64,000 nucleotides of DNA from a virus. A program made the translations under genes and the position numbers. Below are positions 1,393-63,172 of the stretch, piece by piece. A model generated the notes under the pieces. It saw nothing but the letters and a program-made list of their open reading frames with translations, searched no databases and was not told where the DNA came from. Within the stretch, counting starts at the first letter, position 1; each line of letters opens with the position of its first letter. The DNA lies in the IMG/VR virus record IMGVR_UViG_3300046782_000129, positions 1 through 64,000 of that record; one strand, given 5' to 3'.

Positions 1393-1422
1393 GGGGACTC
1401 CTCTAACAGGGGAGTCCCTTTT
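1393..1422 (+). terminator. Rho-independent terminator
   Basis: GGGACTCC...GGAGTCCC stem plus TTTT after the capsid unit. Confidence 0.75.
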
Positions 1423-1462
1423 GCACTTGATTGCCACAACAACATGTCAAAGGAGTTGACAC

Positions 1463-1897
1463 ATGGCGTTGAAAACGGGAGAGAGACCTGAGAAGTCGGT
1501 CGGGGAAGATGTGGCTGGACCTCAGCCAGTGGACACCATCGTCCTTGAACTGACGATGTACGTCAATTACACGTGGAACGGGGAGACGTATCACGCGGGG
1601 ACACCGTATCGGTTCAAGCGGGATGATGCAATGATCCTCATGTCCGAACAGGACCACGAACGTCCTATCTGGCGGATCTACCAGCCGCCCAAGATCAAGA
1701 AGGCCCAGCGTGCGCCAGAAGTGGACTCAACCGAGGTGAAGGCGGTACGGACACGCCAATCCTTGGAAGAGGCGGGCTTTCGGGACACGCGGAAGGGGAC
1801 GAACACGGGTAAGAGAATCGACGTCGGCACTGATGAGGAGATTGCAGACATTCTCGACCGTCCTGATTTCGACGCATCCGGGGACGTGACGGTGTAA
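1463..1897 (+). CDS. Hypothetical protein, head module
   Basis: AAGGAG RBS; lies between capsid and adaptor genes. Confidence 0.7.
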   Translation: MALKTGERPEKSVGEDVAGPQPVDTIVLELTMYVNYTWNGETYHAGTPYRFKRDDAMILMSEQDHERPIWRIYQPPKIKKAQRAPEVDSTEVKAVRTRQSLEEAGFRDTRKGTNTGKRIDVGTDEEIADILDRPDFDASGDVTV

Positions 1898-1899
1898 TT

Positions 1900-2517
1900 A
1901 TGTCGATGAAGATGCCGCTGTTCGTGAAGCCGGAAGATGTCATGACCCGGTTGCAGTTGGACCCCGAGCTTGCGGGGATCACCGACGTGATCACCTCTGG
2001 CATCATCGGCGCACAACTTCACGTCCAGCGCATCTGTAGCGGGCTACTGCCACGTCAAGTGCAGGACGCCCGCTACTTCATCGACTCCATGTCGTTCTCC
2101 AGCATCGCCCCCAACGGCACGTATCGTGTGGAGATTCCGAGCGGGTTCGTCCGTATGGACGTGCCCGTGATGATTACGGCGTCCGCGTCCGGGGCCGGTC
2201 CATTCGAAGACCTGACCGAGGTGGACATGGGGCTGGTGAGACTGGAAGCTCCGCGTGGCTACCTTCACCTCGATGGAAACACGTTTGGAGACTGTCACGT
2301 GCGGGTGCAATGTGAGACGGGGTTCGATGCTGATGAAGAAATTCCAAACGACGTGTATGAAGCCATCATGTCGCTCATTCCGATGATTTTTGAAAGTGCG
2401 CCCACGACGGGAGGCACGACCCAGAAGGCCATGATGCGACATCAGCCCACGGACCCGGCATTCATGCTGTTACAGCCCTATATTCGGACCAAAGGCTTCT
2501 CTTTCCGTCCAGCGTGA
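1900..2517 (+). CDS. Putative head-tail adaptor/connector
   Basis: VRVQCETGF...IPNDVYEAI...LLQPY pattern typical of gp6/gp15-like adaptors; synteny. Confidence 0.6.
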   Translation: MSMKMPLFVKPEDVMTRLQLDPELAGITDVITSGIIGAQLHVQRICSGLLPRQVQDARYFIDSMSFSSIAPNGTYRVEIPSGFVRMDVPVMITASASGAGPFEDLTEVDMGLVRLEAPRGYLHLDGNTFGDCHVRVQCETGFDADEEIPNDVYEAIMSLIPMIFESAPTTGGTTQKAMMRHQPTDPAFMLLQPYIRTKGFSFRPA

Positions 2518-2520
2518 GTG

Positions 2521-2576
2521 CAAGCAAGCACAAGCAAGCACAAGCAAGCATTTTCCAAGCAAGCACAAGCAAGCAT
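2521..2576. repeat. 56-bp element (CAAGCAAGCA)x3-TTTTC-(CAAGCAAGCA)x2-T, copy 1
   Basis: Read directly; exact reverse complement at 52236-52291. Confidence 0.95.
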
Positions 2577-3039
2577 GAAGCTTCTTTCCGTTACCGTCGT
2601 CGGCCAGACCGGTTTAGAGGCTTCAATGGCTGGTTTGGCCGAGGCCATGGACACGAGGAAGATCCTCGATGAGGGAGCCGCCGTCATCTACAACCGGATG
2701 CGGTCACGGTTCCTCATGGAGGAAGATCCTCTGGGGAACAAGTGGCCCCCCTCTCGTGCGGCTCTCCGACGTGCGGCGAGTGGCCGAGGCGGTGGCACCC
2801 TGTTCGACACCGGCAAACTCTTTCGAAGCATTCAGTTGTATGCTGGGGACGACACGACCCGCGCCATCGGCACGGATGTCACGTCCCCGAGCGGTTTCTC
2901 CTACGCCGAGAAGCATCAGTTCGGGATTGGCTTCCCCCAGCGGCAGTTTTTAGGCTTCGGGCAGGACGATCTGGAGACCATGCAGAACGTGATCATCAGA
3001 CGCATTGCTGAGGGCATCAAGAAGGGGACGAACGTATGA
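2575..3039 (+). CDS. Virion morphogenesis / tail completion protein (Mu gpG / P2 gpS-like)
   Basis: RFLMEEDPLGNKWPPS, TLFDTGKLFRSI, YAEKHQFG, PQRQFLG motifs. Start placed at ATG 2575 rather than GTG 2518. Confidence 0.85.
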   Translation: MKLLSVTVVGQTGLEASMAGLAEAMDTRKILDEGAAVIYNRMRSRFLMEEDPLGNKWPPSRAALRRAASGRGGGTLFDTGKLFRSIQLYAGDDTTRAIGTDVTSPSGFSYAEKHQFGIGFPQRQFLGFGQDDLETMQNVIIRRIAEGIKKGTNV

Positions 3040-3524
3040 ACCCCAGCAAGCTGAACGAGGTGATGGCGGAGGCCATGGCCCGGTTGCAGCAATTGAATGC
3101 CCCGCCCGTGGACTTGACTGGCCGCGTCGTGGTGGCGTATGACGAGAACGATTTACACGATGTCCTGAAGGGCATCAAGAGTTTCCCTGCCGTAGGCATT
3201 GTGTACGAAGGCATGCGTTCGATGCCTGAGTCAGGTCCTACGGCCAAAGTGGGTCTGTCCGCAGAGATTGTGTTGGCCTTCGTGTTGGTGGAGGCGGGCG
3301 ATCAGATTCATCGGACGAACCAGAAGAAGGTCCGCGCTATTGAGTGGCTGGATGCGATGCGGGCACAATTCATTGCCCAACGGAGCACTGTCACCCAGCA
3401 TTTCTGGCATTTTCTCGTGGAAAGCCCAGCCGCCTTGCGGTCTGGTACGGTGGTGTGGATCCAGCGATGGTCAGTCCCCGTTCAACTCCCCCACCAACCG
3501 CCCTCCCAGCCAAACTGCCGCTAG
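3036..3524 (+). CDS. Putative tail terminator
   Basis: FPAVGIVYEG motif, size and synteny. Confidence 0.55.
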   Translation: MNPSKLNEVMAEAMARLQQLNAPPVDLTGRVVVAYDENDLHDVLKGIKSFPAVGIVYEGMRSMPESGPTAKVGLSAEIVLAFVLVEAGDQIHRTNQKKVRAIEWLDAMRAQFIAQRSTVTQHFWHFLVESPAALRSGTVVWIQRWSVPVQLPHQPPSQPNCR

Positions 3525-4240
3525 TCTCCTGCATTCTGCCGACGAAGGATCGAGCAGCCTTCATCCCGCAGGCCATCAGAAGCTACCAGACGCAGACGTA
3601 TCCCTACCGGGAACTGGTGATCGTAGACAACGGGAACGACCACACCGAGTCGATGATTCCCTTTGCTACGGATCCCACCATTCGATATGCCCGCGTGGCA
3701 GGCCGATTGACCACCGGAGACATGCGAAACCTGTGTGCGAAGCACTCGTACGGACAGATCATCTGTCATTTTGACTCGGATGACTGGAGTGCGCCGGGAC
3801 GTGTGACAGAACAGGTCACACAGTTGGGGGAGTTCGGCGTGGTGACTGGCTATCACTCGATGTTGTTCTATGACATCCGAGATGGCAAAAGCTACCTGTG
3901 GCACATGCCGCATTCACCCGTGCGCTACATATTGGGGACATCGCTGTGTTACCGTCGAGAGTGGTGGCGTACCCACCGGTTCGAATCGTTGCGTGTGGGA
4001 GAAGACTTGCGGTTCTATCAACGAGCCTGCCGAGAGGCCAGACGGTTGACCTTCTCGGCTCCCGCAGGCCATCAGATGGTGGCCCGCGTGCATGATCATC
4101 AGACGTGTCGGAAGTCTCTCACCCCGATGAGTTATACTCCGATGCCACCCACGGCGTTACCCTCGGGATTCCCATGCGATTTAACATCTGCTCCAATCTC
4201 AATAACGGTGTTGGACTCCAGCGGGACTACGAACTGCTGA
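3467..4240 (+). CDS. Glycosyltransferase family 2 (GT-A)
   Basis: PLVSCILPT...ELVIVDNG, ICHFDSDDW (DxD), GEDLRF. Start uncertain. Confidence 0.88.
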   Translation: MVSPRSTPPPTALPAKLPLVSCILPTKDRAAFIPQAIRSYQTQTYPYRELVIVDNGNDHTESMIPFATDPTIRYARVAGRLTTGDMRNLCAKHSYGQIICHFDSDDWSAPGRVTEQVTQLGEFGVVTGYHSMLFYDIRDGKSYLWHMPHSPVRYILGTSLCYRREWWRTHRFESLRVGEDLRFYQRACREARRLTFSAPAGHQMVARVHDHQTCRKSLTPMSYTPMPPTALPSGFPCDLTSAPISITVLDSSGTTNC

Positions 4241-5040
4241 GACACCAGTTAGAGAAGCGTGGCCATCAGGTGTATGGAGTGCAGTTCAATGCCACTCCGG
4301 TGGTGGCTCCACGAGCAGATGTCAATATTTTCGTGGAAGTGGTGACGCCGTTCGTGTTTGCTGCCGCTCCCAAGCAATGGGTTATCCCCCATCCTGAGTG
4401 GTGGTTTGCTCAGTGGGACAAGTACCCCTATGACTTGGTGCTAGCGAAGACCAGAGACTGCGAACGGATTTTTAGAGCGAAGGTTGGGGACAAATGCCGT
4501 TATATTGGGTGGCTGGCAAGGGATTTGTATCGTCCGGAGATTCCACGGCAACGGAAATTCCTGCATGTCTGTGGGAAGTCACAGTTCAAGAACACGCCTG
4601 CGGTTATTGTGGGATGCCAGCATGCTGGTGTGCCCCTGACTGTGATCGGGACACACGCGGGCACCCGCCGTCACGTCTCCGATCCGGAGCTAGTCAACTT
4701 GATGAACACCCATTTTTGTCAGGTGATGCCTTCCGCGTATGAAGGGTACGGCCATGTGTTGCATGAGGCGTTGGGGGCGGGACAGATCCTCATTACCACC
4801 AATGCTCCGCCGATGAATGAGTTGACGCCCTCCATCTTGTTGCCGAGTGAAAGCACGTCGAAGTACCATGAAGGCACGTTGCACAAGGTGTCGCCACTCA
4901 GTGTGTCGAAGGCCGTCAAGCATGTGATGGCGTTGCCACCCACGTCGGTGCAACGGTATCGTGACGAGGGCCGCGCACAGTTTCAGCAAGATCAGGTGGC
5001 GTTTGAGCAGGCGTTGGACGAGTTGTTGGGACCCGGCTAA
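4174..5040 (+). CDS. Glycosyltransferase, GT-B fold (GT4-like)
   Basis: PSAYEGYGHVLHEALGAG (EX7E) and ITTNAPPMNE. Confidence 0.85.
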   Translation: MRFNICSNLNNGVGLQRDYELLRHQLEKRGHQVYGVQFNATPVVAPRADVNIFVEVVTPFVFAAAPKQWVIPHPEWWFAQWDKYPYDLVLAKTRDCERIFRAKVGDKCRYIGWLARDLYRPEIPRQRKFLHVCGKSQFKNTPAVIVGCQHAGVPLTVIGTHAGTRRHVSDPELVNLMNTHFCQVMPSAYEGYGHVLHEALGAGQILITTNAPPMNELTPSILLPSESTSKYHEGTLHKVSPLSVSKAVKHVMALPPTSVQRYRDEGRAQFQQDQVAFEQALDELLGPG

Positions 5041-5585
5041 TGGTGTTTACGGATCACGGGAAGAAGAATGCGCTGTGGGATGTGCTGCACTCAATTGCCA
5101 CACAGCGGAAAATCGTGGCCTATCTGGAAGTGGGGGTGTGTTACGGCCACTCCCTGCGAACGGTGCTGGACGTGCAGTTCCCAGACCGATTGACGCTCTG
5201 TGATTCGTGGGGCGGCGAGTCGGGTGGAGAACAATTTGGAGGCCCGACTCACATCGAAGCCCTCCTCCAGACCTTGGAATACCACTACCCAGTGACGTTC
5301 TTGAATGGAAACTCCCACGAGTTACTGAAGACCGTCAAGCAACGGTTCGACCTGATTCTCGTGGATGGCGACCACACGGAGGAAGGAGCCAGACAAGACC
5401 TTCAGGATTGTTGGCCCTTGCTGATGCCCGGAGGCTTGTTGGTGTTCGATGACCTGAGCCATCCCTCCCACCCCGAGCTACTGTCGGTGTTCCATGACTT
5501 CATGACCAGCGTGCAGGCCACCCTGATCCATGAAGATGTCGATACGCCGATGGGCGTCGGTGTGCTATGCAAGATATCGTCCTAA
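5040..5585 (+). CDS. Class I SAM-dependent methyltransferase (Methyltransf_24-like)
   Basis: YLEVGVCYGHS, FDLILVDGDHTEEG, LMPGGLLVFDD. Confidence 0.88.
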   Translation: MVFTDHGKKNALWDVLHSIATQRKIVAYLEVGVCYGHSLRTVLDVQFPDRLTLCDSWGGESGGEQFGGPTHIEALLQTLEYHYPVTFLNGNSHELLKTVKQRFDLILVDGDHTEEGARQDLQDCWPLLMPGGLLVFDDLSHPSHPELLSVFHDFMTSVQATLIHEDVDTPMGVGVLCKISS

Positions 5586-6340
5586 TCCCCACCTATGACC
5601 GGCCCGAATTGCTGTGGTTGTGCTTGGAGTACATGGCAGCAAGTCCGGAGAGCCGAGAGGTGCAGATTCTAATCTGTGTGGATGCTCATGTGGGGCACGC
5701 CCCCCCTCCACGAGCCGAGATTGAAGAAGTCATCAAGAAATTCCCGCAGCTACACATTCGCATCGGCTTCAGGCCCGCGCACACGTTCCACGGGAACAGT
5801 TTCAATTTGATGATGGCGTACCGGGACTTGTATCAGACCGAGGCCCGCTACGTGTTCATGGTGGAAGACGACGTGATGATCATGCCCGAGTTTTTCGCAT
5901 GGCATCGCCAGCAACACCTCCACCGGTTGATTGGGTGCAGCATTGGCGTACTGAAGCGTCCTGAGCACGGGCACTATGCGTCGTTGGGGGTGTGTTTTCG
6001 TCGGGAGATTCTGAAAAGAATTATCCCCCATTGTCAAACGGCGTACTTTCAAGACATGAGGGGATATTGCAAGAAAATGTTCCCTCCGTCGAAGTATGAC
6101 TGCGAACAGGATGGGTTGTGGTGTCGAGTGCTGTCCGATCAACCGGTCGTCTGGCCTATGATTGCCATGGCCCAACATGTAGGGTGGTACGGCTACCACA
6201 GAAAGAAGAGTCATCGCCCCAGCGGGACACTCGATCAACGTTACCAGCAAGTCAAAATCGCTCTGTCTGACGCAGGAATTTTGCACACGATGGTGCGAGA
6301 GTTCTGGGATGTGGAACCCTTACGAAGCCCTTGCAATTGA
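5567..6340 (+). CDS. Glycosyltransferase, GT-A fold
   Basis: IVLIPTYDRPELL, YVFMVEDDV, QDGL, QHVG motifs. Confidence 0.75.
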   Translation: MQDIVLIPTYDRPELLWLCLEYMAASPESREVQILICVDAHVGHAPPPRAEIEEVIKKFPQLHIRIGFRPAHTFHGNSFNLMMAYRDLYQTEARYVFMVEDDVMIMPEFFAWHRQQHLHRLIGCSIGVLKRPEHGHYASLGVCFRREILKRIIPHCQTAYFQDMRGYCKKMFPPSKYDCEQDGLWCRVLSDQPVVWPMIAMAQHVGWYGYHRKKSHRPSGTLDQRYQQVKIALSDAGILHTMVREFWDVEPLRSPCN

Positions 6341-6403
6341 GTGCCGAATGCCTCACACTCTTGGACGCAGCCACAACAGGTTGTGTGTTCAAAGGAGAAC
6401 GCT

Positions 6404-7519
6404 ATGAGTCTGGTAAATGTTAAGAGTCTAGGGTATGGCGGTACGGGTATCCCCGACGCTTTGCCTCAGGCGATTGCCGAACTCCAAGGCATGAGATTGA
6501 CCGTGGTCAATGGAGCAGCGGCAGGCACGGTTGTCCCGGTCCCCGGCATGGACCCGGAAGACACCATCGGAGCCGCTGTGGATCTGACCGGCACGGTGGA
6601 CATCCCCGTCAACACGCTTACCATCCAAGGCCGCAACGCGAAGGGCACGATCACGTGTCTGACGACCGCCGCCGATGGCGACTTCGTGACCGTCAACGGC
6701 AGGAACTACACGTTCCGCAATGTGATCGTGAGCACCAGCTACAATGCGCCTCCCGGCGTGGTGCCTATCACGATTACGCCGAGCGGCAGTGACCCCGAGC
6801 AGATGGCCAGAGTACTGGCTCAGGTCATCATGTCCGGAGATAGCAGCGTGACCTGCACGGTGGGTCCCGATGCATCGTCTCCGCCGAAGATGGCCGTGGT
6901 GACCGTGCTGGTGCGCCAGCCCGGAACCGCAGGCAACAGCTACACGCTGGCCGAGACTGGTAATTCGGTCACGGTATCCGGAGCCACCTTCACAGGCGGT
7001 ACATCAACTGGCAGCGCGGGATTCGTGAGCAGCGTCAGCTTGGCAGGCAAGAAAGTCCTCCTGCTCTGGTACGACAAGCGTCCGGGAGTGCAGACGGCTC
7101 CGTTGCTCATGGGCGTGCTTGGGGCGATGGAAGACCCAATGGAGCACATCACGTTGACCGTGACGGAACTGGACCCGGAGTCGGCCAACATCGGAGACCC
7201 GAGCTTCACGTTGCACGTTCACGGCACGGGCTTCGGTCCGGATTCGGTGATCGTGTTCAACGGCCACGAAGAGCCGACGACGTTCGTTTCCACCACGGAA
7301 CTGACCACGGGGGTGGACATGGACGTGTGGAAGGGTCCTTCGGAACCCCTGCCGGTGGTCGTCAAGACCGGGCTGGGTGATCAGAGTGAGCCTCTGGAAT
7401 TCCAATTCTTTGCTGCTGGAACTCCTCCAAAGGCTGGGTCGGAAGGCAAGGGCAACTTGACCTTCAAGGGTGGCGGGGAGAAGAACGACACGAAACACCC
7501 CGGCAGACCCAGACGCTAA
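6404..7519 (+). CDS. Putative virion structural protein with C-terminal Ig-like (IPT/TIG) domain
   Basis: AAGGAG RBS; FTLHVHGTGFGPDSVIVFNG...TTFVSTTELT. Confidence 0.7.
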   Translation: MSLVNVKSLGYGGTGIPDALPQAIAELQGMRLTVVNGAAAGTVVPVPGMDPEDTIGAAVDLTGTVDIPVNTLTIQGRNAKGTITCLTTAADGDFVTVNGRNYTFRNVIVSTSYNAPPGVVPITITPSGSDPEQMARVLAQVIMSGDSSVTCTVGPDASSPPKMAVVTVLVRQPGTAGNSYTLAETGNSVTVSGATFTGGTSTGSAGFVSSVSLAGKKVLLLWYDKRPGVQTAPLLMGVLGAMEDPMEHITLTVTELDPESANIGDPSFTLHVHGTGFGPDSVIVFNGHEEPTTFVSTTELTTGVDMDVWKGPSEPLPVVVKTGLGDQSEPLEFQFFAAGTPPKAGSEGKGNLTFKGGGEKNDTKHPGRPRR

Positions 7520-7545
7520 CCATTTAGAGGAGAGGGAGACTCAGC

Positions 7546-8379
7546 ATGGCAACTTTTGATGGGGCCAATTGGTACTTCAGCGGCCAAGGCGTGATCATGG
7601 TCGGTCGGCGGGATCCGATTACCGGCAATCCGATTGGCCTGAGACCAGTCGGCAACTGCCCGGACATGAAGATCGGGATCGCCACGACCGTTGTGAATCA
7701 CAAAGGGTCGCAGGACGGTCAGCGTGCGACAGACGCACGACTCCAGACCGAAATCAACGTGACTTGCTCGATCACCGTGGAGAACTGGAACGCGAAGAAC
7801 CTCGCAGAAGCCACGAGAGGTTCGGACACGCTCCTGCCAGCCGGAACCGCCACCAACGAAGACGTGATGGGCTTCCCCGGTATGGTCAGTTCGTTCCGGC
7901 ACATCGACGTGAACGGCGTGGTCGTCAAGCAAGGCAGTTCCTCGCTGGTGATGTACACGGACGGCACGGTGCCGTGGGACTACAAGCTGAACCAAGCGGC
8001 AGGCTCCATCCTGATGAACGATGGCGTCCTGATGGACTTCGCGTCCTACGCCCCGGCATCGCCCTTCGATCCCGCAGGCGATCCACTCACGGTCAGCTAC
8101 AGCTACGGGGAACAGTACCTCGTGGATTCGTTGACCCGTCCGATCACCGACAACTGGCTGCGCTTCGAAGGTCTCAACACCATCGAGGAGAACAGCCCGG
8201 TCATCGTGGACGTGTTCCGCTTCAGCAACGACCCGCTGAAGGAACTGGCCCTGTTGTCCGACACGTTCGGTCAGTTCGTCATCGAGGGTTCGGTCCTCAA
8301 GGACGATACCCGTTTGGCAGGCAGCAATTACTTCAGCATCAAGAAGCTGAAGGCACAGCCCGACAACGCCGTCAACTAG
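7546..8379 (+). CDS. Major tail tube protein
   Basis: YFSGQG...VGNCP, LRFEGLNT, IEGSVLKDDT motifs; upstream of chaperone and tape measure. Confidence 0.85.
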   Translation: MATFDGANWYFSGQGVIMVGRRDPITGNPIGLRPVGNCPDMKIGIATTVVNHKGSQDGQRATDARLQTEINVTCSITVENWNAKNLAEATRGSDTLLPAGTATNEDVMGFPGMVSSFRHIDVNGVVVKQGSSSLVMYTDGTVPWDYKLNQAAGSILMNDGVLMDFASYAPASPFDPAGDPLTVSYSYGEQYLVDSLTRPITDNWLRFEGLNTIEENSPVIVDVFRFSNDPLKELALLSDTFGQFVIEGSVLKDDTRLAGSNYFSIKKLKAQPDNAVN

Positions 8380-8401
8380 ACGGCCACTCGGGGCACGGCA
8401 T

Positions 8402-8433
8402 GGGTGGGTGGCAATGGGCCATCCACCCCTTTT
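8402..8433 (+). terminator. Rho-independent terminator
   Basis: GGGTGGGTGGC...GCCATCCACCC stem plus CTTTT. Confidence 0.7.
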
Positions 8434-8460
8434 CGTAGCAGGCCCAACAAGGAGTGTTCA

Positions 8461-8919
8461 GTGGCCAAAAAGATCGTGAAGATCGCAGACCTCGCTCAAC
8501 TCAGCCGTCCCGTTGACATTTCTGAAGACGAACAGATCATGGTGCGGGCCTTGAACCTCCGCGAGATGGTGGAGTTGTTTATCGATTCCCGTGACGTGTT
8601 TCTGCCGTTGTATGCGGCAGGCGTGGAAGGCACGGTGAATGCCGAAGGACTCGGACCTTTCCTGCTCACGGCTCCAGAAGTCGTCGCCAAGATCATCGCC
8701 CTCGCTTCGGACGAGCCGGGATCTACCGACGTGATCCAGAAGCGCATGCCTGCGACCGTGCAACTGATTGCGCTGTCGGAGATATGGAAGCTGTCGGTAC
8801 CCGACGCAAAAAAAGCGAGAGAGTTGTTATCCGAGGTGACAACTCTGTTGCAAAAGCTCAACGAAAAGGGCGAGTTAGCCCAGAAGACAGCTTCTCCAAT
8901 GAGCTTGCAGGCGCAGTAG
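8461..8919 (+). CDS. Tail assembly chaperone (gpG-like)
   Basis: AAGGAG RBS before GTG; between tail tube and tape measure. Confidence 0.75.
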   Translation: MAKKIVKIADLAQLSRPVDISEDEQIMVRALNLREMVELFIDSRDVFLPLYAAGVEGTVNAEGLGPFLLTAPEVVAKIIALASDEPGSTDVIQKRMPATVQLIALSEIWKLSVPDAKKARELLSEVTTLLQKLNEKGELAQKTASPMSLQAQ

Positions 8920-9116
8920 AGTTACTGGTGGCCCATGGCCATCGCCCCCATGAAGTCTGGGGCTACAGTTTGCGAGTCATTCAGGTGTACGTAGACCTGA
9001 TCACCGTGCGGGTTCGTCAGCAGTTGCATGCCTTGACGGTGGCCGTACGCCATACGCAAGGGTCTGATGCCAAGGTGTTTCGTGAGTTTCTGAAAAGCCT
9101 TGAGGGAGACGAGTAA
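8808..9116 (+). CDS. Tail assembly chaperone extension (gpGT-like, -1 frameshift)
   Basis: A AAA AAA heptamer at 8808-8814; the -1 frame stays open up to the tape measure start (LLVAHGHRPHEVWGYSLR). Confidence 0.7.
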   Translation, partial: KKSERVVIRGDNSVAKAQRKGRVSPEDSFSNELAGAVELLVAHGHRPHEVWGYSLRVIQVYVDLITVRVRQQLHALTVAVRHTQGSDAKVFREFLKSLEGDE

Positions 9117-12100
9117 TGCCCCCGACCTCAGCCGCGATGGAGTTGAAAGTTCTGATTAGCGTCTTGCAGGAGGGCGGAGCACTCAAGACCCTACTAGCGG
9201 ATACCAAATCTCTGACTACGGCACTGACGACCCTTCAAGGGCAAGCTCAGAAAGGAAATGCCGAACAGAGTATCAAGAAGATTGGGGATGCCGGAAACGA
9301 AGCGGCTAAGGGTATCGCCAATCTGAACTCCATAATGGAGAAGGCCGTTGCGGGGGTAAAATTTCTGGCCGGTGGGTTTCTGGCGTTGGAGTCGGTACGG
9401 TTTATCAAAGACCTCGCAGATACGGCAGCACGAGCCGAAGTGCTGGCTACGGTGCTCCATGTTGTCGGATTCAATGCCGGATACTCTGTTGATCAGCTTG
9501 ATAAAGCGGATCGTCAAATTCAAGCTCTTGGAATTACAGCGACGGCATCACGTCAGGCCCTCACTCAGTTCATCCAAGCTCAGTTAGACCTCACCAAGGC
9601 CCCAGAACTCGCCCGAGCCGCCCAAGACGCAGCGGTCATTCTCGGAGTGAACTCGTCAGAAGCGTTTTCTCGGTTAGTGACGGCTGTACAGACCAGTAAC
9701 ACGCTGATGCTTCGGCACATGGGCATTATCGTGCAGGCCGAAGGTTCCTATTCGAAGTACGCTGCTGCGATTGGGAAGACAGCAGGACAGTTAACGACGG
9801 AGGAGCGTCATCAAGCGTTTTTGAACGCCACGCTAGAGGAAGCGAAAAAGATCCAAGGGTCATACGAAGCCGCGATGGGAGACGTGGGTAAGCAATTGAC
9901 GTCTCTCGACCGCTTGACTGAGAACTTGAAGGAATCGTTGGGTAAGAATTTACTGCCTGCGTATTTGGCTGTGGTGCAGGAACTGTCGTTGGTGTTGGAG
10001 CAGTTGAAACTGACGTCCGATGGGATGTACGAACAGGGTGAAGGAGCGAAGACTCTCGGGGAAAACGTTCGTGAACTGGTGAAATTTCTCCACGATTTAC
10101 TCGATATCATCATTAAGTTCAAAACAGAAATTCTAGGATTTGTGGGGGGATGGATTCTGCTGAGATACGTCATGCTCCCGGTCGTGGAAGGACTCAAATG
10201 GCTCGTTACGTATCTGGGGAGTGGTGAACTGGCCGCAGGGGCGGGCATTCTCGGGAGGATCGCCGGAGCGTTTAGTCTTCTTGGTGCGACGATCATCATT
10301 TTTGTCGTCGGTATGGCCATTGTCTCTGAGCGATTCCGTATGGGATTGGCAGGGATGGCCAGTGCGGTCATGGCGGCAGCAGAAGCCATGACTATCCCTT
10401 TCCAAGGGGCATTTCGAGCGATTATCGCGGCTCTGCAAACCCTACGAAATATCATCGACCACCCATTTGACACGGATAGTTGGAAGCAGCCGTGGATTGA
10501 GTGGGAAAAGTACATCAAAGATAGAATTTCGGGAGTAAAGGATTGGTGGGACTTAGCGAAGGTCGGATTCTCCATCGCCTTCCCACAGCTAGCCACGCCC
10601 GAGTTTGCCCGAGGGATCGTCCAATCACAATTGACGAAAACCTTTGAGGAAGAAGCCCAACTTCTTGAGCAGATCACTAGGAAGACTCAAGAGTACAACG
10701 ATATGACAACTGCCGGGTCTACGGCCATGGCCACGGCGGCTAAAAAAGAATTGGATGTTCTAAATAGTAAGGCAAAAACGCTCCATGAAAATCGGATGGC
10801 CGCAGAAGACGCTCTGAAATACTCTAAAGAACAGCGGGCACAAGCTGAAAAGGACTTGGAGACCAGACGAGCACAGATAAAGCTGGAAGCTCTTGCGACT
10901 TCGGTAGAAGAGGCGAGAAAGGGAGCGAAGTTCGGGTACGGCCCATCTGGTGAAATTGGTGTGCAGTTTGGCAATCAGTTGGGGCAGTTCAATTCGTTGC
11001 TGAGAGGGTACACCACAGGTGTTGATCATGCTGGGGTCGCTACTGCCGAATTGGTTCGCAACCTTGAAGAGGTTGGTGCCCAGACCAAGACCCGAGATGA
11101 ACTGGTTCAACTGAAAAAGGCAGCAGACGACCTGTTGAAGACTCCGGGGCTGTCTCTGTCTGAGACTTTGCGGGCGAGACAGGTCTCGTCCACGGCGGCT
11201 CTTCAAGTGGCACAAGCCGAGCGGCAACGTTCAGCAGCCATTGTCGCTGATCAGATAGAAAAAGCCAAAGAAATTACGGATATCCAGACCCAGAAGGATG
11301 AACGGGAACTCGCCAACCTCAAGACCCGTGGGACCAACGAACAACAGTTGCTGGAGTTTCAGTACAAGCAGCACCTTGTTCTGCTCGATGACTACTACGA
11401 TGCCCGCATCGCCAAGATTCGGAAGGAGACCGACGCTGAGGTGAAGGTGCAGCAAGACCAAATTGCTGCGATAGATGCCAAGGCCGCGATTGGAAATCAA
11501 GATCCGAAAGTTTACGCCGATCTAGCTATCCAAAAGGCGAAAGCCGTCGCCCAAATCGCGCAGATTCGGGGCAGGGGTGAAAACGAGGAAGACGCGCAGA
11601 ACCAAGAGCGGATTACCCAGAGGAATCAACTCGTTGATGACCTGAGGATGGCCACGTTTCAACAGCGTGCTCAAGTGGGGGGCATTACCGCTGAGATGGC
11701 CCTGTTGAATGAACAATTGGAGCGAGAGAAAGACAAATACGCCGCGTTAGATCCCATGCAGGCGGAAGAACTGACTCGTCTGCATCGTTTGTCAGCGGAA
11801 GCTGCACTGTACCAGAAATACCGGGATCAAGCTCTCCAAGTTGAGATGGGGATCACGCAGGCGTTCAGGGATCAGTTGGATCAGCGACAGCAAGGACGTG
11901 ATCTGGCGGGCGCACAAGATAAGGCCGACGTTGCTACTGGAAAGATGACGGAGAACCAAGCACGGGTCCGATCCAATGACCGTATTCGGCAAGAGATGGC
12001 GGACAATGAACTGAAGCGATTGACGCTTGAAAAAGACTACGCCCTCCAAGCACAACATGCACAGGAGAGCCTTGAGGCAATGAAGGTGGATAAGGTTTCC

Positions 12101-12868: not shown

Positions 12869-13278
12869 TGCCTCTGCAATTCAGTGACACGCTCAGGAAC
12901 AATCGAGCCAATCAGATCGAGACAACGCTGGGTACGGCTCCAACGATGTACATCTTCTCAGGACCCATGCCCGCCAACTGTGCGGCGGCGGATGCAGGCA
13001 CGCTGCTCTGTCAGTTCACCCTGCCCTCTGACTGGTTGTCCAACGCCACGACCGGCATCAAGACGAAGGTGGGCACGTGGACGGGCACCGCAGGCGTGGC
13101 CGCAGGGGCAGGGACCGCAGCGGGGTACTTTCGGCTCAAGACGGGATCAGCCGTTCACATGCAGGGCAACATCACGGTGACCGGGGGCGGCGGAGCCATG
13201 ACCATCGACAACATCATGATTGTCAATGGTCAGCCGGTGAACGTGACCAACTTCAATGTGATTGACGGCAATGCCTAA
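12868..13278 (+). CDS. Putative virion/tail protein
   Basis: GGGAG RBS, TGATG coupling; AGTAAGYFRL...MQGNITVTGGGG. Confidence 0.7.
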   Translation: MPLQFSDTLRNNRANQIETTLGTAPTMYIFSGPMPANCAAADAGTLLCQFTLPSDWLSNATTGIKTKVGTWTGTAGVAAGAGTAAGYFRLKTGSAVHMQGNITVTGGGGAMTIDNIMIVNGQPVNVTNFNVIDGNA

Positions 13279-51075: not shown

Positions 51076-51441
51076 ATGGATGGGCTGGTGCCGGGTAGGG
51101 TCGTCTACTACGTGCTCAGTGCGAAGGATGCCGAGGAAATCAACCGGCGAAGGACGACGCCGGGATCCATTGCCCAAGCGATGGAAGAGGGCACGTGGAC
51201 GGTGGGAGCGCAGGCCCACGTCGGCAGTGAGGTTCACGAGGGAGATGTTCTCCCGGCCCAAGTGATTCGCATCTGGAGTCAAGAGACGGGTAACGTTAAC
51301 CTCAAGGTCAATCTTGATGGCAGCGACACGTTCTGGGCGACGACTCGTGCCTATACCGAGAGTAAAAATCCCGGCACATGGCACTGGATGTTTGATGGCC
51401 AAAACACTCGGTACAGGCCGGATCGCGTGGAGAAAGCATGA
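51076..51441 (+). CDS. Hypothetical protein
   Basis: GRVVYYVLS..DAEEINRRR...VNLKV.LDG.D..WAT pattern; GGAGGG RBS. Confidence 0.75.
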   Translation: MDGLVPGRVVYYVLSAKDAEEINRRRTTPGSIAQAMEEGTWTVGAQAHVGSEVHEGDVLPAQVIRIWSQETGNVNLKVNLDGSDTFWATTRAYTESKNPGTWHWMFDGQNTRYRPDRVEKA

Positions 51442-54500: not shown

Positions 54501-54798
54501 GGCACCCCTCCTTGAGTGCCGTGCCGTACATCTCTTCGAACCCCTCCGGGGCTTCCGTGCAGACCACGGCCAGCTTGTTGCAGGTCACGCAGAACGAGTT
54601 CCACCGGCCAGCCGGGTCATTGGACCGACGCACCCACGAGCGCATGTCGTGGCCCAGCTTGCGGGCGGCAGCAGCAGCGGCCTTCTTGCGGGCCGACAGA
54701 TCCCCGAAGTGATCGATGGCGTTGTAACGCTGGACGATGATGCGACGTTTCCTTGGTGCCAGATTTGAAGAACGACGACGAGCAAACTTCAAAGCCAT
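54484..54798 (-). CDS. Hypothetical basic Cys/His protein (only credible minus-strand gene)
   Basis: AAGGAG RBS on the minus strand and its own promoter; GHDM...CVTC. Confidence 0.7.
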   Translation of the reverse strand: MALKFARRRSSNLAPRKRRIIVQRYNAIDHFGDLSARKKAAAAAARKLGHDMRSWVRRSNDPAGRWNSFCVTCNKLAVVCTEAPEGFEEMYGTALKEGCLTSGS

Positions 54799-54843
54799 GT
54801 TTTCTCCTTGGTTTGATTGCTCACTCCTTGAGCGTACACATGG

Positions 54844-54905
54844 ATCATATCATAGGCCCCTCAGGTTTGTCAAGTTTGACAAATCCCAAAGCTGTGTGAT
54901 ATGAT
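54844..54905. promoter_or_regulatory. Back-to-back divergent sigma70 promoters
   Basis: TTGACA-N18-TATGAT on both strands; -35 boxes 2 bp apart. Confidence 0.8.
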
Positions 54906-54950
54906 CAGTAGAGTCGGAAACTCATGGAGGAGTTTCTGGAGGGAGAGACA

Positions 54951-55507: not shown

Positions 55508-55528
55508 ATCTGCTGCAATCGGTTGCAT

Positions 55529-55619: not shown

Positions 55620-56423
55620 ATGAAGAAGACTCTCCAGTTCGTTCTTGCAGTGGCTATGGTAGGGATCTTCGCAGCGTCGGCATCGGCGGCGTCCATCACG
55701 TTCGTGGGTTCATCGGGCACCTTGGCAGCAGCCACACGTATCACCGATCTTGGTGGTGGCCTGCTGCGGATCGAGTTGGGCAACTTCGGGAGCGCAGCGG
55801 TGATCCCGGTGGATGTGCTGACCGGCGTGTTTTTCGACGGGAACAACGCGGTGTTGTCCAGCTTGGGCAACGTCTCAGCGATCACGTCGGCCACGACGAC
55901 CATCACGAATCCGAATAGTTGTGGCGCAGGCGCGGCAGCGTGCCCGAGTGGAGCCAACCTGAATGTCGGTGGCGAGTTCGCATCGGCGGCGAATCCGCTG
56001 GGCGTCTACGACTTCGGCATCAGTAGCTCGGGACTCGGCATTTTCGGGAACGCCAATTTCCTTGGCCCCGATTTGTCCGACCCGGTTGCTGTCAACGGCC
56101 TGAACTTCGGCATGGTCAGCATCCCGAACGGCATTTCGGGTGGGGCCAATCCGGCAGTCTTGGCTGCTCCGCTGCTCCGTGGCGTCGTGACGTTCACGTT
56201 GCAGGGGCAAGTCGGGTTCAATCCGGCGACGGGGATCACCGGCGTTCGCTTCCAGTATGGGACGGCCCTGACGGATGCGAACTTCATCGGTACTCCGCTG
56301 CCTCCGGGTGTTCCAACGCCGTTCGACGTTGGTCCGACAGCGGTGCCGGAACCGGCATCGATGATGCTTCTCGGTAGCGGGCTACTCGCTGGTGCCCGTT
56401 ACGCCCGTCGTCGCAAGAAGTAA
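55620..56423 (+). CDS. PEP-CTERM sorting-domain surface protein 2 (possibly XDD4-like)
   Basis: Signal peptide ending ASASA; VPEPASMMLLGSGLLAGARYARRRKK; DVLTGVFF, NVGGE, GISSSGLG motifs. Confidence 0.93.
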   Translation: MKKTLQFVLAVAMVGIFAASASAASITFVGSSGTLAAATRITDLGGGLLRIELGNFGSAAVIPVDVLTGVFFDGNNAVLSSLGNVSAITSATTTITNPNSCGAGAAACPSGANLNVGGEFASAANPLGVYDFGISSSGLGIFGNANFLGPDLSDPVAVNGLNFGMVSIPNGISGGANPAVLAAPLLRGVVTFTLQGQVGFNPATGITGVRFQYGTALTDANFIGTPLPPGVPTPFDVGPTAVPEPASMMLLGSGLLAGARYARRRKK

Positions 56424-58099: not shown

Positions 58100-59185
58100 A
58101 TGAACACACGCATGGTTGCGGCGATGCGCCGTGCTATGGAACCGGGTCCCGGTCCGGGGCCGGGTCCGGGACCCCTGCCTCCGGTGATTCCTCCCACCGA
58201 TCAGTCGATGATACGAGCGAACTTCTGTGGTCATCGGGACCACGTGGGACGCATCGTCTTTGACCCGGCGTACTTCTGCGCGAATGAAGTGACGCCAGAG
58301 GATCGCAAGCAGACCTACGCCATCAAGAAGCGGATGGGTCTGAACGCCATCGTGCTCCAGACTCCTGATGGACACGTGTATCCGGGGTACAAGGGCTTCT
58401 CGATCCCTGACTGGCGTCAGCGCATGGACCTGATGAAGGCGTTGGTCGATGAGGTGATCGCCCATGGGTTCCTGCCGTTGGTGTTCCTGACGACCGGCAA
58501 CAACGTGGACGACCTTGGCCTGTACGATGGAGAGCTACGCCGAAAGACCAGAGTCTTCGCAGGCTACGGCAAGGCCGCATGGTTCTCAGGTGGCTGGGAG
58601 ATGACCGGGAGTCAAAACCCGACCATCAGCACGAAGCAGGTCAACGAAATGCTCAAGATCATGCACGAGGAGTTGGGTGACGGTGCCCTGCTGTTTGTGC
58701 ATGGAGCGGACTGGGAGCGGTGTACTGCTGCGAGTTATCGAGGCAGTAATCCGGACATCCAACCCCCCGGTTGTATTTGGGTGAACGATACGTGGGTGGA
58801 AGCCGATGATCCCTCGCAGGGTGGAGAAATCGACTGGTGGTACACGCCAGAAGCTCTGTGGTGCAAGGCGTGGTTCTGGCAGTCACGACACGGTGGAGCC
58901 GGTCCCAGTTACAACGATGACACTGAGTTGAAAGCGTGGCGGGGTCGTGCAATTGAGTGCCAAATCCGGTTCTTGGAGCCGGGAATGCGTCCACCACCGA
59001 TGGTGGCGTACGAACACGGTGCTCCAGATTGGATGGGGTCACGACACGGCAATCGCCCGATCTTCGTGGTGTTTGAACTCTCTCCATACGAATACATCCG
59101 AGAGTGGTGTGATGAAGCTCGGGTGCAATACGTGGCCAAGCTCCTGCACGATGACGGGTTCTTGCATCTGGGTAGCGGCACATGA
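58100..59185 (+). CDS. Hypothetical protein, possible TIM-barrel glycoside hydrolase
   Basis: Alternating beta/alpha pattern; GGWEM and VVFE as candidate catalytic Glu pair. Confidence 0.5.
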   Translation: MNTRMVAAMRRAMEPGPGPGPGPGPLPPVIPPTDQSMIRANFCGHRDHVGRIVFDPAYFCANEVTPEDRKQTYAIKKRMGLNAIVLQTPDGHVYPGYKGFSIPDWRQRMDLMKALVDEVIAHGFLPLVFLTTGNNVDDLGLYDGELRRKTRVFAGYGKAAWFSGGWEMTGSQNPTISTKQVNEMLKIMHEELGDGALLFVHGADWERCTAASYRGSNPDIQPPGCIWVNDTWVEADDPSQGGEIDWWYTPEALWCKAWFWQSRHGGAGPSYNDDTELKAWRGRAIECQIRFLEPGMRPPPMVAYEHGAPDWMGSRHGNRPIFVVFELSPYEYIREWCDEARVQYVAKLLHDDGFLHLGSGT

Positions 59186-59665: not shown

Positions 59666-59666
59666 T

Positions 59667-61155: not shown

Positions 61156-61172
61156 GTGGCAATCAAGTGCAT

Positions 61173-61546: not shown

Positions 61547-61594
61547 GCCTCAAAAAGGGCCAAATTCCCTAGCAAAAACAGGGGAATTTGGTCC

Positions 61595-61623
61595 TTGACA
61601 AACTGGGCTAGTGGTGTCATACT
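61595..61623 (+). promoter_or_regulatory. sigma70-type promoter preceded by a stem-loop
   Basis: TTGACA-N17-CATACT; CCAAATTCCC...GGGAATTTGG hairpin at 61560-61591. Confidence 0.75.
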
Positions 61624-61804
61624 GGGTGGGTAAGGTCATGGAGGATTCGATGGTAGCAACAATTCGCCCGGTCCACTTCGTCCCCGATGTTCGTCGGCCC
61701 TTCAAGACGGCGTGCCAAGCTGGGCGGCACACAAAGCGGTGGAGGTCGGTGGATACGACCACGGTGAAGGCCGCAGTGACGTGCAAAAAGTGCAGGAGGG
61801 TGGC

Positions 61805-61975
61805 ATGAAGGACATGGTACAGCATCACACTGACATCAAGAAGCAGGGCGTAAAGCCAACTACGTGGGTGGTCGTCTGCTCCTGCGGCTATCAGAGCCGT
61901 CCCTACGAACGCAAGCGGGACGCGGACAACGACGAAGGCGAACACGTTCGCCTGATGACCTACGTGAAGGATTGA
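61805..61975 (+). CDS. Small Cys/His protein
   Basis: GGAGGG RBS; H...CSCG...H. Confidence 0.5.
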   Translation: MKDMVQHHTDIKKQGVKPTTWVVVCSCGYQSRPYERKRDADNDEGEHVRLMTYVKD

Positions 61976-62234
61976 TCCAAGTGAGAAACTTCACGCACGA
62001 GCGGGACAAACGCTGCACAGAGACCGTGTTCAGACGGGGCCGGGACGGGCAGGGGTTCAAGCGGTGTGCATTCAGCACCCTGATGCACCTGTCCCCCCAG
62101 CGGTGTGGGCGTGTGGCCCCTGAGGGGCGGAGCAAGTGCTGGCAGCACGACCGGGAGCAGTCGAGGCGGCGGCGGCAGGCCCACGTCGAATTCCCTGACT
62201 CTAAACCCTTGAGAAATAAGGGGTTATAGACCAC

Positions 62235-62263
62235 TTGACAAATGGAGTGATTGGGCGTATACT
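62235..62263 (+). promoter_or_regulatory. sigma70-type promoter
   Basis: TTGACA-N17-TATACT. Confidence 0.8.
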
Positions 62264-62295
62264 TGTTCTGTAAGGTCATGGAGGACAACAAAGTT

Positions 62296-63150
62296 ATGGC
62301 ACACACACCCACGGTCCACAATCCGACGCACTTCGAACCCGCGCACTACGAGGTCGTAGACTATCTTGACAACAAGCGTCCCGCCTACTACGGGCAGGGC
62401 ATCGAAGCGTTCGAAGCCGAGATCAAGTTCTGGCAGGACGAGATGATCGCCACCTTCGGCGCGGACTACGCGAAGAAGATTCACCACTGCGTTCACTGCG
62501 GCAACGGTCGCGTGCGCTGGATCACGGCGACCAAGCACCTCCCCACGGGCGACGTGGTGGTCTTCGGGTCGGACTGCACGGCGCGTCTCGGGTTCCGCAA
62601 TCAGGTCGCCTTCAAGCTGGCGCAGCTTCAGGCGAAGGCGGAAGCCGGTCACAAGCGGATGAAGATTTGGGTCGCCCGCACGGCGTTCCTCGCGGCGAAT
62701 CCGGAGTTCGCGGCGGCGGTCGAGCAGGCGAAGAACGAAGTCCACGCGAAGAATACCTTCGTGGCCGACGTCATCAGCAAGCTGAACCTTTACGGAAGCC
62801 TCTCAGAGCGTCAGGTGGCGGCGGTCATCAAGTCCATCGCCCGTGACATCGAGATGGCGTCAGGCAAGGCGGCAGAGGCCACCGAGGTCAAGGGAGACGC
62901 CCCCACGGGTCGCCAGACGGTCACCGGGGTCATCCTGAGCATCAAGCAGGTCGAAGGCTACTACGGCTGGCAGTCGAAGATGCTCCTCAAGCTGGAGAAC
63001 AACGCCCGCGTGTGGCTGACGGTCCCCAGCAAGGCGGCGGTGGAGGTCAAGAACACCATCACGGTGACGGCCACCTTCGAAGTCAGCAAGGATGACAAGT
63101 CCTTCGCCTTCGGTAAGCGTCCGAGTCTGGTCAGCGTCAAGGCGGCGTGA
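62296..63150 (+). CDS. Hypothetical protein (Zn motif, possible C-terminal OB fold)
   Basis: CVHCG...GSDC, LSERQ, GRQTVTGVILSIK; strong codon bias. Confidence 0.75.
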   Translation: MAHTPTVHNPTHFEPAHYEVVDYLDNKRPAYYGQGIEAFEAEIKFWQDEMIATFGADYAKKIHHCVHCGNGRVRWITATKHLPTGDVVVFGSDCTARLGFRNQVAFKLAQLQAKAEAGHKRMKIWVARTAFLAANPEFAAAVEQAKNEVHAKNTFVADVISKLNLYGSLSERQVAAVIKSIARDIEMASGKAAEATEVKGDAPTGRQTVTGVILSIKQVEGYYGWQSKMLLKLENNARVWLTVPSKAAVEVKNTITVTATFEVSKDDKSFAFGKRPSLVSVKAA

Positions 63151-63172
63151 AATCGATTGCAGGGGGAGGGGG

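Follow-up and report, generated by a model that had tools for sequence, protein, structure and literature searches.

The first 64 kb of the virus record IMGVR_UViG_3300046782_000129, referred to here as the window, raises the question of why one short palindrome recurs throughout a phage genome, inside genes as well as between them. The complete record (genome G000) is 117,534 bp in length. Its two ends overlap by an exact 127 bp, which suggests that the assembly is circular, and 143 of its 146 genes lie on the + strand by our own gene calls. A first-pass annotation of the window had listed about 20 palindromic sites and proposed that a single dimeric protein binds them across the genome. The results below tentatively favor, with a probability of roughly 0.4, the view that the sites form an array bound by a conserved dimeric protein, encoded by the phage itself, with the sites acting as operators at promoters and as dispersed roadblocks elsewhere.

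Number of Sites

The pattern GCAMTCVRKTGC has 20 matches in the window, which correspond to 19 distinct positions because the perfect palindrome at 12664 matches both strands. In 100 dinucleotide-preserving shuffles of the window, the mean was 0.39 and the maximum 4, compared with the 19 observed. The whole G000 genome contains 31 distinct sites, and a reversed-pattern control has none. All 19 exact copies that had been annotated are present as distinct positions, with each 12-mer beginning one base later than was given there because a flanking base had been counted. Each copy also has the TGCA end ascribed to it, either as a T before GCA or as an A after TGC.

When one mismatch is allowed, the window yields 40 matches against 7.87 expected, with the exact sites re-counted on both strands. 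Only eight further distinct positions are gained, which is about the chance level, and the exact copies are sharply separated from the rest. A one-mismatch copy had been annotated as a further member. This weak copy (GAAATCGATTGC, + strand) does exist at 63149–63160, but it is unsupported on its own, and its membership is doubtful because its class is near chance.

Related Phages Sampled

A search with the capsid protein returned 45 related virus contigs at 31–92% identity. By capsid-gene DNA, the named relatives are Stenotrophomonas phages DLP5 and Summit and Rhodobacter phage RcZahn, while near-identical sequence was found in runs labeled as soil or rhizosphere metagenomes. A second sample of 45 loci (L-numbered) was collected via the protein encoded at 48137–48937. 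Relative G006 was analyzed over 80 kb only, a part that does not include gene 48137–48937, and copies in RcZahn were counted over 100 kb. Sites in the relatives were defined by the general pattern GCA[AC][TC]NN[AG][GT]TGC, which recovers the same 31 sites in G000.

Symmetry of the Site

The motif is a palindrome at the DNA level, (T/G)GCA[A/C][T/C]-YR-[A/G][G/T]TGC(A/C). Its core is composed of two inverted GCA(A/C)(T/C) half-sites that are two bases apart. The center is mostly CA/TG and sometimes CG, with TA in some relatives and AA in relative G009. The half-sites vary independently, and GCAAT, GCACT, and GCAAC are found in all combinations, giving hybrid, homotypic, and doubly changed forms. 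In G007, GCAATCAGTTGC occurs 21 times, GCAACCAGTTGC nine times, and GCAATCAATTGC and GCAACCAATTGC four times each. The doubly changed form GCACTCAAGTGC is found in G002, G003, and G007.

The palindrome extends to 14–16 bp through one or two outer bases that differ by lineage. The outer base is T in DLP5 and G006 and G in G008 (TGGCAAT..ATTGCCA), and the outer pair is CT in G005 (CTGCAAT..ATTGCAG). No further position is conserved within 45 nucleotides on either side of the sites, and a composite promoter is excluded on this ground. The orientation of the center is 15:13 in G000, 11:11 in G001, similarly balanced in G007, and 7:16 in G004, compared with 39:3 in G005, 20:8 in DLP5, and 29:14 in G006. 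Such an architecture is characteristic of a symmetric dimer bound to duplex DNA, the dimer itself being predicted from the form of the site. The sigma-54 promoter, IHF, CcrM, and restriction sites were also considered, and none fits all variants when compared by eye with the generally known consensuses.

Sites Within Genes

As had been annotated, 11 of the 19 window sites lie within called genes; the other eight lie between genes. In the codon-preserving control that the annotation had named, synonymous codons were permuted within each gene so that the proteins and codon sets were kept. The genes of the window then contained a mean of 0.54 copies (maximum 4 in 300 permutations) compared with the 11 observed, and those of the whole genome a mean of 1.03 (maximum 5) compared with 20. 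Together with the dinucleotide shuffles, this rules out chance or a protein-coding artifact as the origin of the array.

One codon phase, with the first G at codon position 3, is shared by 10 of the 11 coding copies in the window and by 18 of the 20 in the genome. It reads Q-[S/L/P]-[V/I]-A in either orientation. From a reading of the sequence, a cysteine codon, or in one orientation a TGA stop, would be unavoidable in the remaining phases. Peptides capable of carrying the motif number 24 in the proteome, compared with 12.5 ± 3.5 in residue-shuffled proteins (maximum 23 in 200 shuffles), and this excess indicates that the word has left a mark on the proteins. At orthologous positions the word is kept while the residue changes, for example, LQSIA in G000 and LQLIA in G001. 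Selection at the coding copies acts on the DNA and not on the protein. The RuvC-like gene is a partial case, since the peptide LQxIA is itself conserved there and G004 keeps LQAIA without the DNA motif; persistence of that site is partly at the protein level.

The ten window copies in the shared phase (phase 2) begin with GCACTCAATTGC at 5087–5098 (+ strand) in coding sequence 5040–5585, which reads LHSIA and has a site at the same position in G001. GCAATCAGTTGC follows at 8760–8771 (− strand) in coding sequence 8461–8919 (VQLIA), at the same relative position as in G001 and G004. The perfect palindrome GCAATCGATTGC occupies 12664–12675 of the tape-measure gene (9116–12868), at 95% of its length (LQSIA), and G001 has a site at the matching place. 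GCAATCGGTTGC is found at 13363–13374 (+ strand) in coding sequence 13271–13717 (LQSVA), and GCAATCAGTTGC at 21500–21511 (− strand) in coding sequence 21165–23201 (MQLIA) and at 29811–29822 (+ strand) in the AAA-ATPase gene 29389–30576 (AQSVA). The replication-initiator gene (32695–33732) carries GCAATCGGTTGC twice, at 32946–32957 (− strand, 24% of its length, LQPIA) and in its 3’ part at 33639–33650 (+ strand, 91%, VQSVA). The last two are GCAATCAGTTGC at 45165–45176 (+ strand), at the 3’ end of the RecA gene 44014–45186 (98%, VQSVA), and GCAATCAGTTGC at 46871–46882 (− strand), at 31% of the RuvC-like gene 46701–47249 (LQLIA). The only coding copy of the window outside phase 2 is GCACTCAATTGC at 58949–58960 (− strand), which lies in coding sequence 58100–59185 in phase 0.

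Outside the window, at G000 99006–112894, four very large genes of polyvalent-type proteins follow the portal gene. Their domains include ART-PolyVal, SprT-like, PI3/4-kinase-like, 2H phosphoesterase/Acb1-like, and MuF. In several of these genes the palindrome stands at the start and a common K(F/W)D-x-N-Q-P-R peptide comes after it, so that some sites lie within paralogous N-terminal modules.

Sites Between Genes and at Promoters

Intergenic sites make up 30–50% of the total across the genomes compared with about 9% expected, a four- to five-fold enrichment; in G000 the share is 11 of 31 (35%). Many of them lie 1–30 nucleotides before a start codon, ahead of the ribosome-binding site, or beside terminator-like hairpins. 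Four window copies had been described as following terminators, hairpins, or stops. GCAATCAAGTGC at 1423–1434 (− strand) does follow a hairpin and T-run, 28 nucleotides before the start of 1463–1897, and GCACTCAATTGC at 6333–6344 (− strand), which is kept in G001, overlaps the stop of 5567–6340 and lies 59 nucleotides before 6404–7519. The other two are intergenic: GCAATCAAGTGC at 49027–49038 (− strand) is 89 nucleotides past the stop of 48137–48937, and GCACTCAGTTGC at 51039–51050 (− strand) is 25 nucleotides before the start of 51076–51441.

G000 contains 30 TTGACAAA words, of which 24 are on the + strand. All 24 are located within 36.9–107 kb and are mostly followed by an extended −10. These + strand promoters share the form TTGACAAA(c)-N14-TGn-TAnAAT (36954–63173 in the window, continuing to about 107 kb). 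No such promoter is present in the structural-gene stretch at 1–36 kb, and a sigma-70 scan of positions 1–20000 gave fewer promoter-like sites than its shuffles.

Five copies had been placed next to TTGACA, and four exact ones hold. GCAATCAGTTGC at 36936–36947 (− strand) is 6 nucleotides upstream of the −35 box TTGACA at 36954. The other three are each 2 nucleotides upstream of a −35 box: GCAATCCGTTGC at 40602–40613 (+ strand; box at 40616), GCAATCGGTTGC at 55515–55526 (+ strand; box at 55529), and GCAATCAAGTGC at 61159–61170 (+ strand; box at 61173). The promoter with site 40602 serves the gp32-like SSB gene 40684–41463, named from the annotation of its RcZahn homologue. The fifth is the uncertain one-mismatch copy at 63149, which is 12 nucleotides upstream of the TTGACAAA −35 box at 63173.

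A site near a sigma-70-type promoter is always upstream of the −35 box, by 2–10 nucleotides. The gaps are 2, 2, 2, and 6 nucleotides in G000, 8–10 in G004, 9–10 in G008, and 5–8 in G006, with a modal gap of 9. Sites were scored as promoter-proximal when a consensus promoter began 0–14 nucleotides downstream on the gene strand. By this definition there are 4 of 31 in G000, 6 of 31 in G004, 2 of 32 in G001, 3 of 67 in G008, 3 of 44 in G006, 3 of 10 in locus L236, and 3 of 12 in locus L243. The opposite strand gives 0–1 such sites, and random positions 0.3–0.9%. In locus L253, about 15 of 29 sites precede a −35-like box by 8–9 nucleotides, directly after terminator hairpins, as judged by eye. The link to transcription is real, for a minority of the sites only.

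The TTGCA arm of the palindrome was also considered as a −35 element with a −10 located 7–10 nucleotides downstream. This layout was found at 17 of 375 sites on the gene strand and at 18 of 375 on the opposite strand, with about 8.7 expected. The layout was therefore discarded as a general rule; a few late-region cases resemble it.

On the − strand, the window has a single convincing gene (54484–54798, 104 amino acids), which is shared only with G001; facing it are two TTGACAAA promoters arranged back to back, at 54866 and 54876. The layout of 54484–54950 is like that of a genetic switch, and no copy of the palindrome is present there.

Conservation Among Relatives

The annotation had named conservation in relatives among the points on which the array could fail, and every relative tested carries the motif. 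The general pattern has 32 sites in G001, 31 in G004, 47 in G005 (47% G+C), 44 in the 80 kb of G006, 53 in G007, 67 in G008, and 34 in DLP5. G009, the most distant relative, has 36, with its own co-varying form GCAACAAGTTGC in 27 exact copies. Many copies are found in G002, G003, and G010 as well, and RcZahn has about 22 copies of GCAAT-NN-A(T/C)TGC forms. Among repeated words, the motif ranks first in relatives of 47–58% G+C. In 31 of the 45 loci of the second sample, GCAA....TTGC is the commonest 4-4-4 palindrome, alone or tied. L253, with 38% identity in its 48137–48937 homologue, is an extreme case: within 20.7 kb the perfect palindrome GCAATTAATTGC occurs 29 times, mostly in repeated terminator-site-promoter cassettes of small early genes. 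The array has therefore been kept, in co-varying versions, across a widespread clade of soil and water phages of about 100 kb that includes the cultured DLP5 and RcZahn.

Individual positions are also conserved, across proteins that are only 25–50% identical. The initiator gene has a site at 82–91% of its length in seven of the eight genomes holding the family, and in G004 a site lies 57 nucleotides upstream of the called start instead. The exact codon drifts between genomes while the site is kept. A site is found at 20–32% of the RuvC-like gene in seven of the eight genomes holding that family, including the distant G009, and at 10–18% of the SF2 helicase gene in six of nine genomes, with the G005 site 82 nucleotides upstream. 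The RecA gene has a site at 88–98% in four genomes (G000, G001, G005, and G007), and at 2% instead in G008. In seven of nine genomes a site is located 51–93 nucleotides upstream of the portal gene. The layout of a terminator followed by a site after the capsid gene occurs in G004, G005, and G008, and in the matching place in G001 (compare site 1423 of the window).

A Comamonas testosteroni scaffold (L162; C10 of G014) has eight sites within its last 7 kb (159–166 kb), where the G+C content drops, while the preceding 73 kb holds only three unrelated matches. This cluster marks the edge of an integrated or scaffold-split prophage that shares one weak protein match with the G000 phage, and the motif thus reaches beyond the close clade. 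Because the motif follows the phage lineage across proteobacterial host classes and changes with phage divergence, its distribution points to a phage-encoded reader. A host regulator, which had been listed as a possible binder, is unlikely, as the motif tracks the phage lineage and the Comamonas copies are confined to the prophage edge.

Spacing of the Sites

The sites are evenly spaced. The coefficient of variation of spacing is 0.43–0.63 in all nine genomes compared with about 0.96 for random placement (P = 0.0055 for G000 and P ≤ 0.0005 in the other eight). For the window alone, it is 0.62 compared with 0.93 (P = 0.028). The evenness also holds under random re-placement of either class alone, coding or intergenic, so the two classes complement each other. 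Site density is specific to each genome and ranges from one per 1.5 kb to one per 3.8 kb.

Candidate Binding Proteins

Of the proteins that had been named as possible binders, the one encoded at 48137–48937 and the replication initiator (32695–33732; annotated as 32644–33732) are the best candidates by sequence. A MerR-like protein (42943–43395; annotated as 42928–43395) is weakened. The fourth, 43752–43952, was rejected, having no homologue in any of the eight relatives compared and being unique to G000.

The 48137–48937 protein (+ strand) is 266 amino acids in length, belongs to an unassigned family (phrog_17202), and has its own strong TTGACAAA promoter at 48078. A homologue is present in all eight scorable comparison genomes (E 8.6e-24 in G009) and in RcZahn (E 6e-65). 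It has no Pfam, NCBIfam, or PDB-sequence match and no function from PHROG, and a homologue search returned 310 proteins, none of which is named. The structure model is all-helical, with a mean predicted local distance difference test (pLDDT) score of 69.7 and a confident helical bundle at residues 30–165. At 39 related loci, the gene contains a site in none, has one within 200 nucleotides after it in 11 and within 200 nucleotides before it in 12, and is flanked in 22. Identification of the binder, whichever candidate it is, would give a function to one of the conserved uncharacterized proteins of the replication module.

The initiator candidate (+ strand) has an N-terminal O-like/DnaD-like domain (PHROG E 1e-6) and two sites in its own gene. 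Homologues are found in seven of the eight comparison genomes and in RcZahn (E 3e-42). In G009, the genome with the differing motif, only a syntenic open reading frame is present, diverged beyond recognition (E 0.8).

The MerR-like protein (+ strand, 150 amino acids) has a MerR-type winged helix in its C-terminal half. It matches Pfam MerR_1 at E 3.8e-4, below the curated cut-off, and belongs to phrog_19880, a transcriptional regulator. Its profile matches the DNA-binding domains of CarA/CarH, MerR regulators, and RacA (E 1e-4 to 6e-3). It is weakened as a binder because RcZahn has the motif and no detectable homologue; the G009 homologue is weak. The operator of a MerR-family regulator is expected as a dyad between −35 and −10, whereas the sites here are upstream of −35.

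Function of the Array

The reading as operators and roadblocks starts from what is directly observed: the motif, selection on it as DNA, its conservation and co-variation in the clade, its even spacing, and its fixed placement at promoters. One phage-encoded, sequence-specific protein would bind double-stranded DNA as a symmetric dimer across the genome, each subunit reading a half-site (T/G)GCA(A/C)(T/C) across a flexible pyrimidine-purine center. The bound protein would most likely govern transcription of the entire genome. Copies 2–10 nucleotides upstream of the −35 box of strong sigma-70-type early promoters would be operators, and copies at gene junctions, beside terminators, and inside long genes would be roadblocks or silencing points. 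Selection would keep one site per 2–4 kb, so that no long stretch is left uncovered. In the earlier proposal of one dimeric protein across the genome, the symmetric site, the promoter subset, and the dispersed, conserved remainder all stand; from these we infer that a protein binds, that it is phage-encoded and dimeric, and that it represses or blocks rather than activates.

This model is preferred because it covers copies at promoters, at junctions and terminators, and in coding sequence, as well as the need for regular coverage. The temperate, plasmid-like lifestyle of DLP5 and DLP3 agrees with it as well. Both are described as temperate in the available portions of two articles (PMC5834331; PMC7326821) and as phagemids in the second, where DLP5 is said to have been isolated as a phagemid (PMC7326821). 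DLP3 is placed in the clade by published relatedness only.

Several results weigh against the operator and roadblock reading. Only 4 of the 31 sites in G000, and 0–20% in most relatives, are promoter-proximal; G005, G009, and DLP5 have none under the consensus definition, and only 4–5 of about 24 TTGACAAA promoters of G000 have a site. The gap to the −35 box varies between genomes (2 nucleotides here and 8–10 elsewhere), which does not amount to one helical geometry, and its constancy within a genome may come from duplicated promoter cassettes. Putative recognition-helix residues of the MerR-like and 48137–48937 proteins do not track the motif variants. No recognized repressor, integrase, or partition gene was found among the approximately 45 of 146 G000 proteins scanned. 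A near-identical word across alpha- and gammaproteobacterial phages is more conserved than is usual for immunity operators. Finally, the even spacing and deep conservation of coding sites would fit replication, organization, or protection as well or better, and for this reason three other explanations are kept alive.

The first of these, unlikely yet deserving weight, is an array for genome organization, partition, or clamp loading, in which a protein would spread, slide, bridge, or tether DNA and promoter effects would be secondary. It would serve segregation of a plasmid prophage, compaction, or formation of a replication factory, in the manner of ParB-parS or of RacA at dispersed 14-bp sites. 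The even spacing in nine genomes, under either re-placement, and the density set for each genome are what such an array predicts. The isolation of DLP5 as a phagemid agrees with it, as do the profile match of the MerR-like candidate to the RacA DNA-binding chain 5i41_B (E 0.006) and weak protein-atlas leads from 48137–48937 to ParB-HTH/DUF3102 clusters (0.83). Those atlas leads are the only trace of ParB: Pfam and NCBIfam give no ParB match in 48137–48937, 42943–43395, or 32695–33732, and neither a ParB N-terminal domain nor a CTPase domain was detected in any candidate. In DLP5 and RcZahn a separate ParB-domain gene adjoins the terminase, and the BLAST table shows no homologue of it among the proteins of G000. 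Strict gene-strand placement upstream of −35 boxes would be left unexplained. A more novel idea, likewise unlikely, is that the 2–4 kb spacing is itself selected, the sites being entry points for a sliding or spreading phage protein that forms a chromatin-like layer. If true, the layer might serve to silence the genome, to license replication or the loading of helicase, or to protect the DNA, and it would be conserved from alpha- to gammaproteobacterial phages and written into coding sequence at a cost to the proteins.

Less probable again is a role as replication or recombination signals. The sites would be read by the O-like initiator, for helicase loading, as origins, or for titration, or they would be orientation-free, Chi-like hotspots read by a phage helicase-nuclease-RecA set. 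The lambda ori lies inside gene O, and here a site is kept in the 3’ part of the initiator gene in most genomes while its codon drifts. Sites are also conserved elsewhere in the replication and recombination module (RuvC, SF2 helicase, and RecA), the 1.5–3.8 kb spacing would be in the size range of lagging-strand fragments, and the changed motif of G009 coincides with an initiator diverged beyond recognition. Origins are, however, normally clustered iterons, while the sites here are single; known Chi sequences are short and asymmetric; and placement by promoters and terminators would have no obvious role.

It is improbable that the palindrome is the target of a DNA-modifying, nicking, or self-marking phage enzyme, or the entry point of a modification machine, which would mark self or prime later steps. 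DLP3 DNA resisted all 15 restriction enzymes tried, and its authors suspect modification (PMC7326821, available portion). Outside the window, G000 82052–88136 encodes two dual-specificity phosphatase-like proteins together with a pyruvate-phosphate-dikinase-like protein, a conserved cluster whose homologues are found in DLP5 and RcZahn; in view of the DLP3 result, this cluster may be a DNA-modification pathway (PMC7326821). The clade shares these proteins together with sugar-pathway genes, a short palindrome is the usual target shape of type II-like enzymes, and the central base pair of G005 is strongly oriented (39:3). Against this, the cluster is absent from G009, which keeps the motif array, and the targets of such enzymes need no enrichment, even spacing, or promoter placement. 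Strand-specific nicks are disfavored, since the center has no preferred orientation in G000, G001, and G007 and the opposite preference in G004.

An RNA-level hairpin (stem GCAA/UUGC, 4-nucleotide loop) affecting the processing, stability, or translation of long co-directional transcripts would account for the intergenic copies 1–30 nucleotides upstream of start codons, for a stem that is the same in both orientations, and for the sense-strand preference for TCAA in G005, DLP5, and G006, but it is very improbable, because in 10 of the 31 G000 sites only one side has changed at positions 4/9, which disrupts the fourth would-be stem pair, and none has the compensating change; moreover, the stem never co-varies across genomes of 47–58% G+C, copies deep in long genes or upstream of promoters (and so untranscribed by them) do not fit, and the outer-flank extension of the palindrome is protein-like and lineage-specific.

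Comparison with Known Systems

According to the available part of a published account, the immunity repressor of Cluster A (L5-type) mycobacteriophages has more than 20 asymmetric 13-mer sites in promoters and short intergenic spaces and is proposed to stop both initiation and elongation, thereby silencing the genome (PMC9283540). The present array resembles these stoperators in its 31 dispersed copies, 11 of them intergenic and 4 at −35 boxes, at about one per 2–4 kb. It differs in that L5 sites are asymmetric and read by a monomer (PMC9283540), whereas the sites here are palindromes of 12–16 bp with independently varying half-sites. L5 sites follow the direction of transcription, while orientation here is mixed although the genes are co-directional, and only G005 is biased. 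Nearly two thirds of the copies lie inside genes, the spacing is statistically even, and the hosts are proteobacterial, all unlike the L5 type. A homologue of the L5 repressor was not seen, though no search was aimed at one.

Plasmid RK2 has 12 OB sites, the class I sites being just upstream of the −35 box. The palindrome of the present phage is likewise found both just upstream of −35 (2–10 nucleotides, gene strand only) and at distal or intragenic positions. Acting from palindromic OB sites that lie near promoters or far from them, KorB is reported to silence over both short and long distances (PMC11790492). It differs as a ParB-family, CTP-dependent clamp that works with KorA/TrbA. The OB core TTTAGCGGCTAAA is unrelated to the motif, and the sites here are carried by a phage, in three to five times greater number. 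By analogy, the array would function like stoperators or KorB OB sites while belonging to neither group and having no sequence relation to either.

RacA ram sites are dispersed 14-bp palindromes read by a MerR-type winged-helix domain, and the profile match noted above is the likeness to this system. RacA sites are G+C-rich and are not evenly spaced over the whole replicon. RacA is also a host sporulation protein of Bacillus subtilis that anchors origin-region DNA to the pole, and the MerR-like protein of G000 was not detected in the motif-bearing RcZahn.

LacI-family, parS, Noc, and SlmA sites are, like those here, palindromic dimer targets, and the TGCAA..TTGCA arms are superficially LacI-like. 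A central CG is a hallmark of LacI-family operators; only 3 of the 31 sites have it, the center being mostly CA/TG, and the resemblance to LacI operators that had been annotated does not hold. The parS sites cluster near partition genes, whereas the sites here do not cluster. An incomplete scan of the G000 proteins gave no LacI-type, Noc, or SlmA protein.

No description of the motif was found in the available parts of the literature searched, supplements not covered. In the available text of the DLP3 and RcZahn papers, the string “palindrom” is absent and “motif” occurs once (DLP3) and not at all (RcZahn). Papers retrieved for palindromic repeats at even spacing in phages were unrelated, as were, by title, those listed for the motif strings. 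Dispersed repressor sites are of a known kind, and the even spacing, the intergenic enrichment, and the fixed placement upstream of −35 are new. The array is distinct from known dispersed repressor sites in that it is palindromic, evenly spaced, and present in coding sequence in one phase, where it visibly shapes the proteome. The question of whole-genome control in a large phage with all genes on one strand is thereby made testable in laboratory systems.

Other Features of the Genome

A degenerate array with a period of about 36 bp is located outside the window at G000 94485–96400 (L093 10485–12400), in a nearly gene-free stretch that directly precedes a motif site and the portal gene. Within it, GAACGAGTC recurs 28 times on the + strand, and GAGCG(T/C)ACC-like words come about 20 nucleotides after each copy. 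Tandem Repeats Finder detected only 2.4 units. This array may represent iterons or a packaging region.

Two genes, 49723–50397 and 55620–56423, encode proteins ending in a PEP-CTERM sorting motif (Pfam E 7.7e-5 and 6.9e-7, above the curated cut-off). Such a motif is uncommon in phages and may point to an exosortase system in the host.

The stretch 36012–36935 and the region at 68–75 kb of G000 encode triple-helix repeats of the collagen type (Pfam Collagen, E 4.7e-27). These repeats account for the over-represented word CCAGCCGGTC.

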